This document shows positions 131-40,269 of a stretch of DNA of 64,000 nucleotides, piece by piece. A program made the position numbers and the translations under genes. The notes under the pieces are model-generated. The model saw nothing but the letters and a program-made list of their open reading frames with translations, was not told the DNA's origin and ran no database searches. The stretch is from Shigella phage SHBML-50-1. The stretch is from sequence record KX130864; one strand, given 5' to 3'. Position 1 is the stretch's first letter; each line of letters opens with the position of its first letter.

Positions 131-769
131 ATGAATGAACCCCAATTACTAATTGAAACTTGGGGTCAACCTGGCGAAATTATTGATGGCGTACCAATGC
201 TTGAATCTCATGATGGAAAAGACTTAGGTTTAAAACCAGGTTTATACATCGAAGGAATATTCATGCAAGCGGAAGTCGTCAATAGAAATAAACGTCTTTA
301 TCCAAAACGCATATTAGAAAAAGCGGTAAAAGACTATATTAATGAGCAAGTTTTAACTAAACAAGCTCTCGGAGAATTAAATCATCCTCCACGCGCTAAT
401 GTTGACCCGATGCAAGCCGCTATCATTATAGAAGATATGTGGTGGAAAGGAAATGACGTATACGGACGAGCTCGTGTTATTGAAGGTGACCATGGTCCTG
501 GAGATAAATTAGCAGCTAATATTCGTGCCGGATGGATTCCAGGAGTTTCTTCTCGTGGATTAGGTTCATTGACTGACACAAATAAAGGTTATCGTATCGT
601 AAACGAAGGATTCAAATTAACTGTAGGTGTTGATGCAGTATGGGGTCCAAGTGCTCCAGATGCATGGGTAACTCCTAAGGAAATTACCGAATCACAGACG
701 GCGGAAGCCGATACAAGTGCCGATGACGCCTATATGGCTCTCGCAGAGGCCATGAAAAAAGCGTTATAA
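131..769 (+). CDS. 21: prohead core protease gp21
   Basis: 212 aa ORF, ATG at 131; recognised sequence and position before scaffold and major capsid genes. Confidence 0.9.
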   Translation: MNEPQLLIETWGQPGEIIDGVPMLESHDGKDLGLKPGLYIEGIFMQAEVVNRNKRLYPKRILEKAVKDYINEQVLTKQALGELNHPPRANVDPMQAAIIIEDMWWKGNDVYGRARVIEGDHGPGDKLAANIRAGWIPGVSSRGLGSLTDTNKGYRIVNEGFKLTVGVDAVWGPSAPDAWVTPKEITESQTAEADTSADDAYMALAEAMKKAL

Positions 770-18085: not shown

Positions 18086-18088
18086 CAA

Positions 18089-18117
18089 TGGGGACCGAAA
18101 GGTCCCCATATTTTTAT
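18089..18117 (+). terminator. terminator after gene 54
   Basis: ggggacc-gaaa-ggtcccc followed by a T-run. Confidence 0.8.
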
Positions 18118-18404
18118 TTACGGAATGAAATAAAAGCAGCAACTGAAGCAACTAAACTGTCTTCAATATAAACTTCAATTTTTACCGGAGCTTCTGACTC
18201 AAATTTACCTGTTACTACACCTTGGAAAATGCTTTCAGTCTGCTGTGGCTTTGAAAAATTTTCAGAAGGAAAAATTCCGAACTTTTTATCTGTTCCAAAA
18301 ATTTTGATAAATTCATCATAAACTGCTTCATTAAAAGCGTTATCAGCAGGAATAACGCCTTCAACTACAAGTTCTTGACCTAAAAAGCGTAAAGAAGATT
18401 TCAT
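18114..18404 (-). CDS. hypothetical protein (alt.-3 position)
   Basis: 96 aa ORF with early promoter immediately upstream. Confidence 0.6.
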   Translation of the reverse strand: MKSSLRFLGQELVVEGVIPADNAFNEAVYDEFIKIFGTDKKFGIFPSENFSKPQQTESIFQGVVTGKFESEAPVKIEVYIEDSLVASVAAFISFRK

Positions 18405-18429: not shown

Positions 18430-18470
18430 AAGATTACTATAACACAACACGAGGGACTTGTAAACTACAT
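18430..18470 (-). promoter_or_regulatory. early promoter for the alt.-3 ORF
   Basis: Minus strand GTTTACA, 17 nt, TATAGT. Confidence 0.6.
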
Positions 18471-20522
18471 CTTGAACTTTTTAGACATTCCGTTGATGTT
18501 AACCAAAGAAGCCAAGATTTGAGAAACTTCGTTTTCCTCTTCTTTTGATTCTTCTACGAGGAATTGATTAAACCCAGCCATTGGACGAACTTCGCCAGTT
18601 TCCATTAGATGATCGCCATCATATACCGATTCTTCTAATTGTTCAGAAGGAGGAACGATTGTGCCTTCGATTAGATACTTGTTATAAGCAGTTTCTTTCA
18701 TAAAGTAAGTACTTACTTTATTAATCTTCAGTAAAATTCCACGTGGTAGAATAACTTCAGCTTCTGATGGAAATCCTGATAAATGACCTGGAACGATAAC
18801 TTTGATTCGCTCAGCTCCTTTAATTACCATACCCACGCTAGTTTCAGCATCTTCATTAGCATATGTAGAATGACTACCCATATGCATCAAATCTTCTGCA
18901 TCAATGGAACCTTCTCCTTCACCAGAAAATACTGCGCCGGAATCATCTAGAGCCATATAGTTTTTACCATGCTCACCGAAGATATTTGGTTTAAGCGATG
19001 TTGATACGAAGTTCTTGAAATAGAACATTTTATTTTCAATGTTATGACGCAAAGTTTTAAAGGTAACTTCTTGCCCACGATAAAGAGTAGTTCCTGGAGG
19101 AAGAACTGAACCTTTAGCAAATGCAGAATCCAACGTCTCGATGTGTTTAATAGCTCGTTCCATATATTCTTCACGGGTAGAATCAGGTTTACCTAAAAGG
19201 AACGAGTTCATTTCAACATATGAATCTGCACAATAATCTTCAATTACATCAGACTCAGCCTGAGTTAATCCTTTTGGAGTTACTTCAGTGCTTGCGTATT
19301 CATATGCCTGAGCGGCAGATTCATTAATCAATTTATAAATGCCATTCATGACAAATTGAATAATAGCTGTCTTTTCATCTGGTGTAGCTTTAGAACCTTT
19401 AACTAAATCATTGATAATTTTCTTAATAACATCAAAGCTATTAGAAATATTAATGTCAGCAAGATCGCTTAAAATTTTATCAGTTTTATAATCAAAGAAT
19501 TCTTTATTCTTTAAATATTCTTGAGAACCTTGATATGTTATATCGCTCTGCAACTTGATAGATGGATCACGTAAACGTGCATGGGCTAATGCAATATGAT
19601 TTCGGAAACTTTCTAGTTCATAATCGTTAGATTTAAAACGAGAAGCACTTCTCATACCACCGATAGCTCCTTTGCTGAAGTTGGAACCAATCTGAATAAC
19701 GCCAGAGTTCATCGGACCTTCTGCTTTATATACAGGAACTTTAGATTCAAACTCTTGATATTTCTTGGCAGCGAAGCTATCACCCTGAAGTGAAGCATCG
19801 ACAGTAGAATATTGAGCTTGTGCTGCTAATCGACGACTAATTTTAGTTTTCTGAATAACAGCTTGATCCGTGCGCTTATCATTTTCTAAGGCAATAGAAG
19901 CAGCAACAGCAACAGCTTTAGGAACAGCATTACCTGTTTTAACATCCACATAAACATCACCAACCTTTGATTCAACTTTTGTGAATAACTCAGTTGAAAT
20001 AGGAGGTACACCTGGAATGTCTTCTAAATTGGCATTTTTACGGTAAACCATAATATATGCATACTTTTTATCATAATCCCAGATTTCCTTTAAAAGAACA
20101 TATCGACCTGCTCCTTTAGTACGTACTAAACGGTCAGCAATAACTTGCATTTGACGAGCTGCGCCATTTGTTTTACTTTTTAGTACGCGGAATAAGCATG
20201 CATCAATTTTATACTGTTTCATTGTTTGAAGAGCAGTATCAAAAACGGCATTAATGACACCAATTGGATTTCCACCTAAGTTTTTAAGTTTAACTAATGA
20301 TAGTTTCTCATTGACACCTATCATTACGATATGCATCATTTTATCGCCTGGCTTAACGTTTTTATTTGTATCACCACCAGAGGTGTATGTACAAAATCTA
20401 AATCCAGGAAGCACACTTTCTTCGCCGGCTTGAATAGCAAAAATTTGAGGTATTTTATGCTTAGGATTTAAGTTAACAACCGGCGCCGAAGCGCCGTCAA
20501 ATAATTCTGTAATAAGTTCCAT
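18465..20522 (-). CDS. Alt-family ADP-ribosyltransferase paralog
   Basis: 685 aa; N-terminus MELITELFD shared with the neighbouring gene; C-terminal R (TLYRGQ), S-T-S (FVSTSL) and E-x-E (SEAEVILPRG) motifs; AAGGA SD. Confidence 0.85.
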   Translation of the reverse strand: MELITELFDGASAPVVNLNPKHKIPQIFAIQAGEESVLPGFRFCTYTSGGDTNKNVKPGDKMMHIVMIGVNEKLSLVKLKNLGGNPIGVINAVFDTALQTMKQYKIDACLFRVLKSKTNGAARQMQVIADRLVRTKGAGRYVLLKEIWDYDKKYAYIMVYRKNANLEDIPGVPPISTELFTKVESKVGDVYVDVKTGNAVPKAVAVAASIALENDKRTDQAVIQKTKISRRLAAQAQYSTVDASLQGDSFAAKKYQEFESKVPVYKAEGPMNSGVIQIGSNFSKGAIGGMRSASRFKSNDYELESFRNHIALAHARLRDPSIKLQSDITYQGSQEYLKNKEFFDYKTDKILSDLADINISNSFDVIKKIINDLVKGSKATPDEKTAIIQFVMNGIYKLINESAAQAYEYASTEVTPKGLTQAESDVIEDYCADSYVEMNSFLLGKPDSTREEYMERAIKHIETLDSAFAKGSVLPPGTTLYRGQEVTFKTLRHNIENKMFYFKNFVSTSLKPNIFGEHGKNYMALDDSGAVFSGEGEGSIDAEDLMHMGSHSTYANEDAETSVGMVIKGAERIKVIVPGHLSGFPSEAEVILPRGILLKINKVSTYFMKETAYNKYLIEGTIVPPSEQLEESVYDGDHLMETGEVRPMAGFNQFLVEESKEEENEVSQILASLVNINGMSKKFKM

Positions 20523-20525
20523 GAT

Positions 20526-22619
20526 TTATCCTTGAACGAACTTGTAAGGCATGTTTGTAATATCTATGCAAGACGCAATAATTCCAAGAGATGATTCTAC
20601 TTTTTGTTTAACATTTGATGAAACAAATGATGCAAAGTCAACTCTGTCTTCTATTTCAATATCACCTGTCATTGCAACTACTTCGCCGGTTTCCATTAGA
20701 CGGTCACCGTCATAAATTACTGATTCGGTGAGTTCTTCCGTAGTCATAACTTCAGCTTGAATGAGTTTTGTATTATTAGATGTTGTTCCGTCATTATTAG
20801 AAGCATCAGTTATTTTATTAACTTTGACCATCAATCCGCGTGGTAGAATAACTTCAGCTTCTGTTGCTATTCCGAGACTTCCTGGATATACAACATTAAC
20901 TTTATGAGCTCCATCAATTGCCCATCCTATTTGAACTTTAACGTATTCAGGATTTTCTTTATACGCTCTTATTTCGTTTGGATTAATAGTTATTCCTTCT
21001 TCATTTTTATCAACTGTCAATTCATTACGAGCTTCTGGTTCTAAAAGACCAATACCAGCATGCGTAATTCCAAAACGTCCAAAAATGATAGGAGTTAAAG
21101 AAGTAGATACAAAATTTCTGAAATAGAATACTTTATTTTTAACTAATGCTTCGTATATAGGAGCAGTCATGCTTTGAGCACGATAAACTGTAATGCCTTC
21201 TGGTATACGGTCACCGTTTTCAAAAGCTGAATCTAAGTTATTTATAGCAGATTCAATTTCTTTTTCACTCATTACATCATATCGTTCTGGATTGTAACGA
21301 CCCAAAAGAAGATTATTGATGTCAGTATATCCTGATCCACAATACTCTCTAATGCCGCGCTTTTGTGATGGAGTATATTTAGAACCATCACGGGCAATAG
21401 TAATATCAATCATTGGACCTGCACCAATTCCAGAAAAACTATAAATCATTCTTTTGAGGAATTTAGTTTTTGCTGCGTTCCAGGAATTTTTAGTCATTTC
21501 TTCCCAGACTTCATCTGGCTGCCCTTTACGAGTTTTATTATGTTTATCAAGCCAATTATCTTTATATTCTTCAAAGAGTTGATTAACAGCTGCTGCGTAT
21601 TTCTCTAAACATTTTATTGAAGTAGTTGGTTCATTTTTAATCGCATTAAGAATTACATCTTTAATTTTTTCTGAAACTTCATCAACCTCACTTTTTGAAA
21701 AGAATTTATAGTCATAGTGAAGTTCATCTGCAGTTCCTTCGGCAATAATTTTTGCTGCCTTAGTTTTAGAAGCTAATGAATTAATTCCAAGCTTCATTTC
21801 TTCTGCTTCGGGAATTAAAGGAGCGGTAGCAGGTTTATTAAAATTAGCTGCTGTAGATTCATACTTCTGGAATAATTCACTTTCAAATCTAGAAGATTCC
21901 AATGATTGACTTTGCGCAATTGCTCTACGGGAAATTTTAACTTTAACGATTACAGCTTGGTCAGAACGTTTATCATTTTCTTGTGCAATAGATGCTGCAA
22001 TTGCCTCATTTTTAGTTACTTGAGCTCCAGTATCTTTATTGATATAAACATCACCAACCTTCGATTCAACTTTAGTAAAGAGCTCGGTACTAATTTCAGG
22101 AACTCCTGGAATGTCTTCTAATGATACGTTTTTGCGATGTATAAGAATATATGCATACTTTTTATCGTAATCCCAGAGTTCCTTAAGAAGGACGTATCTG
22201 CCACCTGAACGACTACGGATAAGTCTATCAGCAATAACTTGAATTTGTCGAGCTTGGCCAGCAGTTTTAGACTTAAGAATACGAAGCATACAAGCATCAA
22301 TTTTATATTGACGCATTGTTTGCATTGCAACAGTAAAAACTGAATTGATATAATTAATTGGGCTTGGACCAAGACCTTTTAATTTAGCAATTGAACCTTT
22401 AGCAGTTAATGTAAAAGGAACAATATGCATCATTTTATCGCCCATCTTTAAATCACGATTAGTATCACCTCCAGATGTATAGGTACATAAACGAAAGCCT
22501 GGTTGTTCAATTGCATCATCAACATGAACTGAAAAAATTTGTGGTATTTTCTTCTTTGGATTTAAGTTTGTAATCGGAAGAGTAGTATCTTCGTCAAATA
22601 ATTCTGTAATGAGTTCCAT
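20526..22619 (-). CDS. alt: Alt ADP-ribosyltransferase, packaged head protein
   Basis: 697 aa from the second ATG (GAGAGGA SD); R (TVYRAQ), S-T-S (FVSTSL), E-x-E (TEAEVILPRG) motifs; late promoter upstream; adjacent to gene 30. Confidence 0.8.
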   Translation of the reverse strand: MELITELFDEDTTLPITNLNPKKKIPQIFSVHVDDAIEQPGFRLCTYTSGGDTNRDLKMGDKMMHIVPFTLTAKGSIAKLKGLGPSPINYINSVFTVAMQTMRQYKIDACMLRILKSKTAGQARQIQVIADRLIRSRSGGRYVLLKELWDYDKKYAYILIHRKNVSLEDIPGVPEISTELFTKVESKVGDVYINKDTGAQVTKNEAIAASIAQENDKRSDQAVIVKVKISRRAIAQSQSLESSRFESELFQKYESTAANFNKPATAPLIPEAEEMKLGINSLASKTKAAKIIAEGTADELHYDYKFFSKSEVDEVSEKIKDVILNAIKNEPTTSIKCLEKYAAAVNQLFEEYKDNWLDKHNKTRKGQPDEVWEEMTKNSWNAAKTKFLKRMIYSFSGIGAGPMIDITIARDGSKYTPSQKRGIREYCGSGYTDINNLLLGRYNPERYDVMSEKEIESAINNLDSAFENGDRIPEGITVYRAQSMTAPIYEALVKNKVFYFRNFVSTSLTPIIFGRFGITHAGIGLLEPEARNELTVDKNEEGITINPNEIRAYKENPEYVKVQIGWAIDGAHKVNVVYPGSLGIATEAEVILPRGLMVKVNKITDASNNDGTTSNNTKLIQAEVMTTEELTESVIYDGDRLMETGEVVAMTGDIEIEDRVDFASFVSSNVKQKVESSLGIIASCIDITNMPYKFVQG

Positions 22620-22642
22620 CATATCCTCTCTAGTGTTTATTC

Positions 22643-22650
22643 TATTTATA
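22643..22650 (-). promoter_or_regulatory. late promoter for alt
   Basis: TATTTATA on plus strand equals TATAAATA on minus, about 20 nt upstream of alt ATG. Confidence 0.6.
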
Positions 22651-22657
22651 AAATTAA

Positions 22658-22676
22658 AGGCCCGAAGGCCTTTAAT
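22658..22676. terminator. hairpin between the 62-aa ORF and alt
   Basis: aaaggccc-gaa-ggccttt palindrome. Confidence 0.5.
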
Positions 22677-22860
22677 AATCTATTGGTAAGAGAGTACGAT
22701 ATATTTCAAACTTTGGACCTTTTTCATAGGCATCAAATGTTTCTGTGAATTTATTATAAGCATATGCATCTACAAATTCGAGAATGACTTGTGATACAGA
22801 AGTAGAAACATCTCCACCTTCTTTTTGAGCAATGACAATTGTTTCTAAGTAAGCTTTCAT
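22672..22860 (-). CDS. hypothetical protein
   Basis: 62 aa ORF, ATGA overlap with gene 30 stop. Confidence 0.5.
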   Translation of the reverse strand: MKAYLETIVIAQKEGGDVSTSVSQVILEFVDAYAYNKFTETFDAYEKGPKFEIYRTLLPIDY

Positions 22861-35359: not shown

Positions 35360-36538
35360 TTAAAAATATTTTTTAAAACTCATCATAACTTTATCATCAA
35401 CATCATTATCAATCTGTGCAACAAGGTAAGATGACAGTTCTACTTCTTGCGGCGCGGATTGAACATTATCAGAATTAAGGTATTCACGAATCCAAGGATA
35501 TGGATGTTTAACCGGAGCATCGGTAATTGGGCATGGAAGACCGCACTGTTTCATACGAGATACAGTTAAGTAATCAATAAAGCTCCACATGCTATTTGTA
35601 TTTAATCCAGGAACATCGCCATCTTTAAATAAATGAACTGCCCAATCTTTTTCTTGGCGGTTAACTTCCATGAAAATATCAACTGCTTCTTGTTCACACT
35701 CTTTGGCAATTTTAACCCATTCATCACCATCAGTGCCAAGTTGAAGTTGACGAATAATATATTGTGTACCTTTAAGATGAAGCTGCTCATCACGTGCAAT
35801 GAACTTCATAATCTTGGCATTACCTTCCATGATTTCCATATTCTTGTGGAAGTTAAAGGTACATGCAAAAGATACATAAAAACGAATAGCTTCCAATGCG
35901 TTGATTACGTGCAGGCAGAGGTAAAGAGAGCGCATTAGTTCACGTTTCCAATACATTTCATGCTCTATGGCATCTTTAATATCATCTTCGTCTGCGTTAA
36001 TTTCTTTTTGGTACTCAATATCAGCTTTAGCATTCTGCCAATATCTAGTTTTCTCAATAACATCATCATAATAACGACCAATAGATTCAGCACGTTTCAT
36101 GATAGCTTTATCTAATACAATCTCATCAAATACCTTTGACGGATCAGTATAAAGATTTCGCATAATATGAGTGTATGAACGACTGTGAATAGTTTCACTA
36201 AAAGTCCATGTAGCAACCCATGTATCAAGGCTTGGGTCTGAAATTAATGACATAAGTACAGCAGACGGCGCACGACCCTGAATGCTATCTAGAAGTGATT
36301 GATACTTCAGGTTGTTAGTAAAAATATCTTGCTGATATTGAGGAAGCTTGTTAAATTGCGCAGCATCCATCATTAAGTTTACTTCTTCAGGGCGCCAGAA
36401 AAATGACAACTGCTTTTCGGTTAAATCTTCAAAAACTTTATGACGTTGAATATCATAACGCGCAATACCAAGACCTGAACCAAAAAACATAGGTTCTTTT
36501 AAAACATCAACTGGATTTGTATTAAAAACTGTGCTCAT
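35360..36538 (-). CDS. nrdB: ribonucleotide reductase small subunit NrdB, uninterrupted
   Basis: 392 aa continuous ORF with di-iron ligand motifs; no intron. Confidence 0.93.
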   Translation of the reverse strand: MSTVFNTNPVDVLKEPMFFGSGLGIARYDIQRHKVFEDLTEKQLSFFWRPEEVNLMMDAAQFNKLPQYQQDIFTNNLKYQSLLDSIQGRAPSAVLMSLISDPSLDTWVATWTFSETIHSRSYTHIMRNLYTDPSKVFDEIVLDKAIMKRAESIGRYYDDVIEKTRYWQNAKADIEYQKEINADEDDIKDAIEHEMYWKRELMRSLYLCLHVINALEAIRFYVSFACTFNFHKNMEIMEGNAKIMKFIARDEQLHLKGTQYIIRQLQLGTDGDEWVKIAKECEQEAVDIFMEVNRQEKDWAVHLFKDGDVPGLNTNSMWSFIDYLTVSRMKQCGLPCPITDAPVKHPYPWIREYLNSDNVQSAPQEVELSSYLVAQIDNDVDDKVMMSFKKYF

Positions 36539-39408: not shown

Positions 39409-40269
39409 TTACACCGCCATCTTTCCTTTAATAGGAGGGTGTGATTCATAGTTGTTAAGAACAAAATTATGTGGCTTTGCGAATTGACTCAACCAAAATA
39501 CCTGCGATTCTGTGTCCCATTCATCAAATTCATCTGGAAATTTTAATTGCAATTCGCATAAATCCATAGGTTCACGACATAAAATTTCTTTACATTGTTC
39601 TACGTGATTCATATAGATATGAGTATTACCACCAGAAAATATCAAATCTCCCGGAATAAGATTACACATCTTAGCTACAATATGAACTAACGTAGCATAT
39701 GATGCAATATTAAATGGAAGACCGAGGAAAACATCTACCGAACGTTGATACCACTGAAGGTCAAGGTATCCATTACGCACATTAAACTGATAGAACATAT
39801 GACAAGGCGGTAATGCCATATATTTAAGTTCAGCTGGATTCCACGCAGAAACAATTTGACGCCTATCATTTGGCAGTTTTTTAATACGATCAATAACTTC
39901 TATAATTTGATCTACACCGCCAAAATCACGCCACTGTTTTCCATAAATTGGACCAAGTTCACCGCTATGGTATCCTAAATCTTTTGCTTGATTTTCGTAA
40001 TTTTCATCCCAGACTGTTTTGCCTTGAATTAATGAATCATGTTGAATTAATCGCAAATCATTGACATTTGTGCTTCCTGATAAAAACCATATTAGCTCAG
40101 CAATGCATGCATTCCAGGCGAGCTTTTTAGTTGTTACTGCAGGAAAACCTTTGGTTAAATCCCAACGCAATTTAGTACCGAACAAAGCAATTGTTCCTGT
40201 GCCCGTTCGGTCATCGGTTTCATAGCCATTTTCAAAAATGTCTTTAATTAAATCTTGGTATTGTTTCAT
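39409..40269 (-). CDS. td: thymidylate synthase, uninterrupted
   Basis: 286 aa continuous ORF; active-site region PPCH; no group I intron. Confidence 0.95.

Follow-up and report, generated by a model that had tools for sequence, protein, structure and literature searches.

Based on the comparative analyses, it was concluded that the 64,000-nucleotide stretch of Shigella phage SHBML-50-1 (sequence record KX130864; the whole stretch is called the window below) harbored two adjacent genes whose predicted products matched the Alt family of ADP-ribosyltransferases (ARTs) throughout at the sequence level (PHROG 802; PF26846 together with PF03496). The downstream gene was designated copy A and the upstream gene copy B. 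It was considered reasonably probable that the two genes encode functional, paralogous Alt-type mono-ADP-ribosyltransferases, probably produced from a late bicistronic message, which would be packaged, trimmed by the gp21 protease and injected, and which would most likely act on different, perhaps overlapping substrates. In the proposed sequence of events, a single late promoter and one bicistronic message would give both proteins late in infection, the conserved N-terminal domain and the short N- and C-terminal propeptides would bring each protein into the prohead core, and gp21 would trim both of them at (L/I)-x-E sites. The remaining parts of each protein would be a fast-diverging helical linker and an ART domain of the R-S-E type, and the mature proteins of ~69–70 kDa would be injected along with the DNA and would modify host proteins by ADP-ribosylation of arginines. 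In the case of copy A, we infer expression, packaging, cleavage, injection and the divergence of targets.

The window was recognized as a part of a Tequatrovirus genome, a 4.9-kb region of which shared 99.3% identity with Citrobacter phage PhiZZ6 and 97% with many other Tequatroviruses. The six-frame list of open reading frames (ORFs) contained, on the minus strand, copy A at 18465–20522 (685 aa, MELITELFDGAS...) and, after a gap of 3 nt, copy B at 20526–22622 (698 aa, starting with MMELIT). The second ATG of copy B at 22619 gives a 697-aa MELIT form, which is the start that T4 uses, and the gene was hence placed at 20526..22619 with an alternative ATG at 22622. The order of the genes, namely 29, 48, 54, alt.-3, copy A, copy B, alt.1 and 30, was that of the T4 alt locus, and the arrangement of the flanks (gene 54/alt.-3 and alt.1/gene 30) agreed with T4, T2, RB14 and PhiZZ6. 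In most records of relatives, both genes of the pair carried the annotation 'Alt-like RNA polymerase ADP-ribosyltransferase', and in some of them one or both were named 'hypothetical protein'. A preliminary description of this DNA had reported two tandem full-length Alt-family ARTs, and its coordinates, lengths and quoted motifs all proved correct.

The two proteins aligned over their full length with 41% identity (BLASTP, E 3e-162), a similarity that chance could by no means explain, and the blocks MELITELFD, CTYTSGGDTN and GDKMMHIV were found in both. The identity, given here in copy A numbering, was 68% in the N-terminal domain (residues 1–238), 16% in the helical linker (239–415), 35% in the ART domain (416–625) and 46% in the C-terminal tail (626–685), which bore out the earlier impression of a shared N-terminal block and a diverged center. 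The N-terminal domains were located on the minus strand at 19809..20522 in copy A and at 21906..22619 in copy B (residues 1–238 in both; PF26846, Tevenvirinae_ADPRT, in copy B). Between the S-T-S and E-x-E motifs (511–585), the identity was 27% with large indels; in ARTs of the C3/iota type this region governs substrate choice. The effector parts, comprising the linker and the ART domain, were only ~26–30% identical and their synonymous sites were saturated, and because of this low identity, different, perhaps overlapping substrate sets were considered most likely. The different host targets suggested previously would be consistent with such a strong divergence of the effectors.

The Pfam family PF03496 was recognized in both proteins well above the score cut-off of 23.4 bits: at residues 416–620 of copy A (E 5e-20, 72 bits; 18663..19277, minus strand) and at residues 378–627 of copy B (E 8e-38, 130 bits; 20739..21488, minus strand). 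Both also matched PHROG 802, 'Alt-like RNA polymerase ADP-ribosyltransferase', over the full length (copy A, E 1e-256; copy B, E 5e-273). The PF26846 family was present as a precomputed match on P0001, a cluster representative of 99% identity, and on further relatives, and the local Pfam copy gave no report of it.

Further, the catalytic residues were assigned in both enzymes. In copy A, the motifs were YRGQ at residues 481–484 (R482 within 19071–19082), STS at 507–509 (18996–19004) and EAE at 587–589 (18756–18764), and in copy B they were YRAQ at 479–482 (R480 within 21174–21185), STS at 505–507 (21099–21107) and EAE at 587–589 (20853–20861), all on the minus strand. In an alignment of 19 diverse family members, R482, S507, S509, E587 and E589 of copy A were invariant, and 58 positions were invariant in the family alignment; the claim that the R, S-T-S and E-x-E motifs are intact in both copies therefore held on careful alignment. 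When the family profile was compared with the sequences in the PDB, the arginine was aligned to the catalytic arginine of C3cer (VYRGD) and BECa, and the E-x-E motif to the Q-x-E or E-x-E of the same proteins. The S-T-S motif, lying outside the segments aligned to the solved structures, was assigned from the motif and family invariance alone. The AlphaFold model of copy A (mean pLDDT 77.7) matched the ART domains of Vis, CDTa, VIP2, C3 and iota toxins in a Foldseek search (E down to 2e-6); no solved Alt structure was found, and the distant ART toxins were the sole matches. These toxins have the ART fold and the arrangement of R, S-T-S and E/Q-x-E in common with the Alt proteins, but the sequence identity is 14–20%, and Alt has a long insertion between S-T-S and E-x-E. 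Besides, the bacterial toxins are secreted, whereas the Alt proteins reach the target cell by phage injection.

Copy B was identified by its sequence and position as alt, an ortholog of T4 Alt that carries a T2-type effector cassette. T4 Alt (gpAlt, UniProt P12726) is a head-packaged, injected mono-ADP-ribosyltransferase, and copy B lay at the corresponding locus, with gene 30/alt.1 on one side and gene 54 on the other. The identity between the two was 70% overall with a mosaic distribution: it reached ~99.6% over residues 1–245, dropped to 26–63% per 50-residue block in the linker and at the beginning of the ART domain (with ~52% for the effector columns together), and amounted to 86–96% in the last ~100 residues. 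The synonymous divergence (dS) was 0.10 in the N-terminal domain versus 1.3, a saturated value, in the effector. The T2 alt record X69893, on the other hand, shared 96% identity with the central DNA of copy B. T4 Alt and copy B agree in the late promoter motif, in the cleavage motifs (ITE-6 and LTE) and in the R-S-E motifs, whereas the helical linker and ART domain are only ~50% identical and represent a different effector cassette. NAD-dependent arginine ADP-ribosylation of host proteins is a known activity of T4 Alt only, which modifies R265 of the RNA polymerase alpha subunit, R84 of MazF and EF-Tu, with at least 27 E. coli proteins as its targets (PMC8120803). Since both copy A and copy B are without the T4 effector cassette, the targets of T4 Alt are not simply transferable to either of them. 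The arrangement was also that of T2 (alt, X69893; 'alt.-1' ORF, MH751506), in which alt likewise encodes 697 aa and precedes a second gene of 685 aa, annotated there as 'hypothetical protein'. The N-terminal domain of copy A was 98.8% identical to that of T2 at the protein level, and there was no difference of substance between T2 and the window.

Copy A (18465..20522, minus strand) was identified as a full-length alt.-2 gene, of which T4 alt.-1/alt.-2 are the remnant, as judged from both position and sequence. The T4 alt.-1/alt.-2 sequences are found at the same position and were aligned with the first ~350 nt of copy A at ~96% identity. In T4, a 1-bp deletion splits the frame and is followed by a deletion junction, the remaining ~1.7 kb being deleted, whereas in the window no such frameshift or truncation was encountered and the 685-aa ORF was uninterrupted. 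Short PHROG families with the lengths of T4 alt.-1 and alt.-2 matched residues 1–56 and 62–117 of copy A, and copy A scored higher than copy B. According to a note in the T4 GenBank record, alt.-1/alt.-2 are an old duplication of the alt start; the full-length gene is labelled alt.-2 in RB9, RB14 and ime09, and alt.-1 in T2. The preliminary description had left it undecided whether the downstream copy corresponds to T4 alt.-2, and this could be answered in the affirmative.

The selection on both genes was estimated as dN/dS by the Nei–Gojobori method in 8 Tequatrovirus genomes. The values for the whole genes were 0.037 (at dS 0.19) for copy A and 0.046 for copy B, so that strong purifying selection acts on both. 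The N-terminal domains were the regions of strongest constraint (0.003–0.006), and the linkers gave 0.07–0.12. A 685-aa ORF of identical length was retained in all eight closely examined genomes. The whole central region of copy A was covered in ~400 GenBank phage records, including that of classical T2, with at least 94% DNA identity in every sampled record. The truncated arrangement of the T4 type was recorded in 91 of 500 matching records, and the window was not among them. Additionally, Yersinia phage fPS-65 combined a T4-type Alt with a full-length copy A, and phage slur14 combined a T2-type Alt with a truncated second gene; alleles of alt and of the second gene combine freely.

The Alt N-terminal domain was present in 1,200 phage records. 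Tandem Alt-like genes were observed outside the Tequatroviruses, three in Dhakavirus WG01 and two each in Moonvirus KM16, Aeromonas phage 31.2 and Acinetobacter phage Ac42; many other phages of E. coli, Shigella and Klebsiella had one N-domain match per genome. Among Straboviridae genera, the same locus thus held from 1 to 3 tandem Alt-like genes. Positional counterparts of copy A were found in Dhakavirus and Moonvirus. Nolan et al. 2006 (PMC1524935) had already pointed to paralogues of alt, among them T4 alt.-1/alt.-2 and, in phage 44RR, a duplicate of full length.

To follow the history of the domains, trees of 12 Alt proteins from five lineages were calculated separately for the N-terminal domain and for the effector (linker and ART), and the two trees disagreed strongly. 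In the N-terminal domain tree, the three WG01 copies were grouped together (bootstrap 96%), copy A and copy B of the window were joined with T4 Alt (88%), and the Ac42 pair and the Aeromonas 31.2 pair were each recovered at 100%. In the effector tree, copy A was joined with WG01_199 (100%) and these two with KM16_245 (90%), and copy B was joined with WG01_200 (100%). The comparison of copy B with WG01_200 gave a saturated dS and 47% identity in the N-terminal domain, versus a dS of 0.77 and 83% amino acid identity in the effector (20739–21900 of the window in copy B), the reverse of the comparison with T4 Alt. According to these data, the N-terminal domains group by phage lineage and the effectors by type across genera, and the effector cassettes, which are polymorphic and mobile, have been swapped between alleles and genera, while the flanking parts stayed with the phage. 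The dS between copy A and copy B was ~1.2 in the N-terminal domain and ~1.1 in the effector, and the A/B duplication itself is old. A recent gene conversion was considered as the source of the N-terminal similarity and rejected: the N-domains were 68% identical at the DNA level, the longest exact shared stretch was 21 nt, and dS was ~1.2. The pattern fits an N-terminal domain that would match the head machinery of its own phage and an effector that would be an exchangeable cargo. The same N-domain tree would also arise from an older gene conversion confined to this domain, and the packaging role is not proven thereby.

The divergence of the effectors also bears on the possibility that the pair is a matter of redundant dosage. 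Both enzymes would then be packaged and have practically identical targets (Arg265 of RNA polymerase alpha among them), with the second copy only raising or buffering the injected activity, which would agree with the architecture, catalytic motifs and processing motifs common to both copies and with the loss of copy A being tolerated in T4 and the 91 records. However, the effectors are only ~26–30% identical with saturated synonymous sites, yet each type is maintained at a dN/dS of ~0.04, and in several genera the A and B types have stayed distinct as lineages. Enzymes as different as these would not be maintained by dosage alone, and this explanation was therefore regarded as unlikely.

Along with the proposal of two enzymes with different substrates, we tentatively put forward a broader model, which is possible rather than expected. 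The alt locus may be an exchangeable injected-effector cassette system, in which a lineage-specific head-adaptor N-domain and conserved C-propeptide flanks would give the homology for effector swapping within and between T-even genera and for changes of the array between 1 and 3 copies. The A-type enzyme would act on host targets that differ from those of Alt, perhaps on a defence system, and the adaptor may carry non-ART cargo elsewhere.

The model of the isolated N-terminal domain was confident (pLDDT 84) and showed an alpha/beta fold. In a search of 1.84 billion proteins, its sequence was confined to 69 representative clusters, and an ART domain was present in 8 of the 10 scanned clusters with more divergent N-domains. 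Two metagenomic proteins, P0183 and P0184 (485 and 541 aa), were Alt-N-like over their first ~140–160 residues (hhalign probability 98–99%); their C-terminal parts gave no match to the Alt ART profile or to any Pfam family, and their contigs were too short to provide a context. These proteins may represent a non-ART cargo on the same adaptor domain. A Foldseek search of BFVD with residues 1–240 of copy A returned, beyond Alt homologues, hits with E 1e-7 to 1e-4 and TMq 0.4–0.5 to large proteins, so far uncharacterised, of unrelated myoviruses. Proteins annotated with zeta-toxin or cytidine-deaminase domains in Agrobacterium phage Atu_ph07, Vibrio phage VP-1 and Erwinia phage phiEa2809 were among them; these hits, with an unconfirmed placement in the proteins, serve as a lead only.

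A single hybrid alt was also noticed between alt.1 and alt.-3 in the Logan contig SRR24155011_2765 (5001–7055). Its N-terminal domain was of the copy B type to about residue 190 and the sequence was of the copy A type thereafter, the switch point being an 18-nt stretch common to both genes. The two-gene arrangement was present in all 15 of the best-matching GenBank phages listed for this contig. The hybrid is either a rare recombinant of unequal crossover or an assembly artefact.

The transcription of the pair was assessed from the sequence signals. A late-promoter consensus, TATAAATA, was located at 22643..22650 on the minus strand, 24 nt upstream of the copy B ATG, and is a consensus match only; the motif occurred 15 times in the window versus 9.3 expected, i.e. 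it was not clearly enriched. The other nearby match on the minus strand (21239–21246) was inside the copy B coding sequence, and none was present in the 3-nt gap before copy A. An AAGGA sequence resembling a Shine–Dalgarno (SD) site was found in the last codons of copy B, ahead of copy A. A strong hairpin at 18088..18109, predicted as a bidirectional terminator between gene 54 and alt.-3, followed alt.-3 at a position where Yersinia phage fPS-65 has an annotated terminator, and it is probably the 3' end of the alt transcription unit. The TATAAATA promoter presumably serves alt and alt.-2, with a possible readthrough into alt.-3. The promoter before copy B and none before copy A, the SD-like sequence and the terminator after alt.-3 make a late co-transcription of the pair likely, which is what a head protein would require. 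The final gene of the cluster, alt.-3, encoded a 96-aa protein with DUF5498 (18114..18404, minus strand); in T4, mutants with a C-terminal extension of Alt.-3 escape the CmdTAC defence (PMC11618068). It was also observed that alt.-3 had a sigma70-like promoter match of its own at 18464–18436 on the minus strand (TTTACA-17-TATAGT with TG), which in fPS-65 carries the annotation of an early promoter.

Packaging of ~40 copies in the head and injection with the DNA would be expected of a protein of the Alt family. In the case of T4 Alt, mass spectrometry established two gp21 cuts, one after ITE-6 that takes off 6 N-terminal residues and one after LTE-619 that takes off 63 C-terminal residues (PMC5694885; PMC9026906). 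The N-terminal site MELITE/L, where the slash marks the cut, was kept in both copies, giving predicted propeptides MELITE at 20505–20522 in copy A and at 22602–22619 in copy B. The C-terminal site was LTE632/S in copy B, which is the same motif as T4 LTE-619, and LEE631/S in copy A; the predicted C-terminal propeptides were residues 633–697 (20529..20723) and 632–685 (18468..18629), respectively, all on the minus strand. Positions E6 and E631 were invariant across the family, as were YDGD, E..GE and the terminal K-F among the motifs of the tail, and the tail of copy A was acidic and predicted to be disordered (pLDDT <50, residues 630–685). The predicted mature proteins had masses of 69.2 kDa (copy A) and 70.1 kDa (copy B). 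The genes of the gp21 prohead protease (Peptidase_S77, 131..769, plus strand) and, next to it, of the gp22 scaffold (800–1609) were within the same window, and gp21 is expected to act in trans as the enzyme cutting both Alt proteins. The shared N-terminus had been suggested to be a capsid-targeting or processing region. This suggestion could be refined and gained indirect support: T4 Alt loses only residues 1–6 and the last 63 to gp21 (PMC5694885), both copies retain the two gp21 motifs, and the N-domain, which stays in the mature protein, groups by lineage and not by effector type.

The same motifs speak against an explanation in which copy A is functional but neither packaged nor injected, having instead a late intracellular role or a non-enzymatic structural or regulatory role in head assembly. 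Published direct evidence of copy A packaging was not found, and the N-terminal domain is the most constrained region (dN/dS 0.003), as such a role would have it. Nevertheless, copy A has kept both gp21 motifs and the family-invariant C-propeptide motifs, which are sensible only for a prohead-resident protein, its catalytic residues are invariant, and it seems to be transcribed in the same late unit as the packaged Alt; this explanation was accordingly judged improbable. That copy A is a decaying duplicate, a pseudogene in the making like the homologous gene frameshifted and truncated in T4 and 91 records, was dismissed as very improbable, since the ORF in the window is intact with all motifs, the eight genomes retain the 685-aa ORF at a dN/dS of 0.037 and dS of 0.19, ~400 records cover the whole central region with the sampled ones at least 94% identical, and positional counterparts exist in Dhakavirus and Moonvirus; copy B is likewise an intact ORF (dN/dS 0.046), so that the early expectation of two genuine genes stood for both.

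Several points weigh against the proposal of two packaged enzymes with different substrates. In the literature searched, neither virion proteomics nor biochemical work on copy A, the second Alt, was found. A fold search with the N-terminal domain among the solved structures returned no confident or informative relative, and its packaging role is what we infer. T4 and the 91 GenBank records hold only a remnant of copy A, and Alt is non-essential in T4 (PMC9026906); any function of copy A must therefore be conditional. Finally, the divergence of the effectors is no proof of different targets, and an overlap between the two enzymes is likely, as T4 Alt by itself modifies at least 27 E. coli proteins (PMC8120803).

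Among other known systems, T4 ModA and ModB are members of the same clade of R-S-E ARTs and likewise ADP-ribosylate host proteins of transcription and translation (PMC5512222, PMC8120803). Unlike Alt, they are small early proteins without the N-terminal Alt domain or propeptides, are not packaged and are not encoded at this locus. The IPI, IPII and IPIII internal proteins and the MuF-fused or polyvalent packaged effectors follow the same logic, in which an effector directed at the host reaches the head by means of a targeting element and is trimmed by gp21 (PMC9026906, PMC9503650). However, the internal proteins have only a 10-residue capsid-targeting sequence (CTS), whereas the Alt proteins have a 6-residue N-propeptide, a C-propeptide of 54–65 residues and a retained domain of 230 residues. 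No MuF domain was detected by Pfam in copy A or copy B, and the likeness to the MuF-fused and polyvalent effectors is in the way of working, not in family membership.

Apart from the pair, the neighboring alt.1 (62 aa, 22672–22860, minus strand), a small conserved protein between gene 30 and alt, matched Pfam PF24647 'Phage_blade' (E 2e-29). The ORFs at 35360–36538 (392 aa) and 39409–40269 (286 aa) on the minus strand are presumably nrdB and td by size and position, and both were uninterrupted. In T4, introns are present in td and nrdB. Across the whole window, no Rfam group I intron, other Rfam family or tRNA was detected. The NCBIfam scan also gave zero matches.

The tandem pair as such was already known, being annotated in hundreds of records, and the duplication was noted in the T4 GenBank record and in the comparative paper of 2006. 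This analysis added the explicit link of copy A to T4 alt.-1/alt.-2 and the evolutionary pattern of adaptor versus cargo. The knowledge of Alt comes almost entirely from T4, whose locus is reduced to one alt allele and the remnant of a second gene. In nature, most Tequatroviruses, T2 among them, probably inject two distinct enzymes of the Alt type, Dhakaviruses may inject three, and the T2-type Alt differs from T4 Alt over the whole effector part. The roles of 'Alt' in host takeover and anti-defence may therefore not transfer to these phages, and the second, A-type enzyme is an obvious candidate for new host targets.

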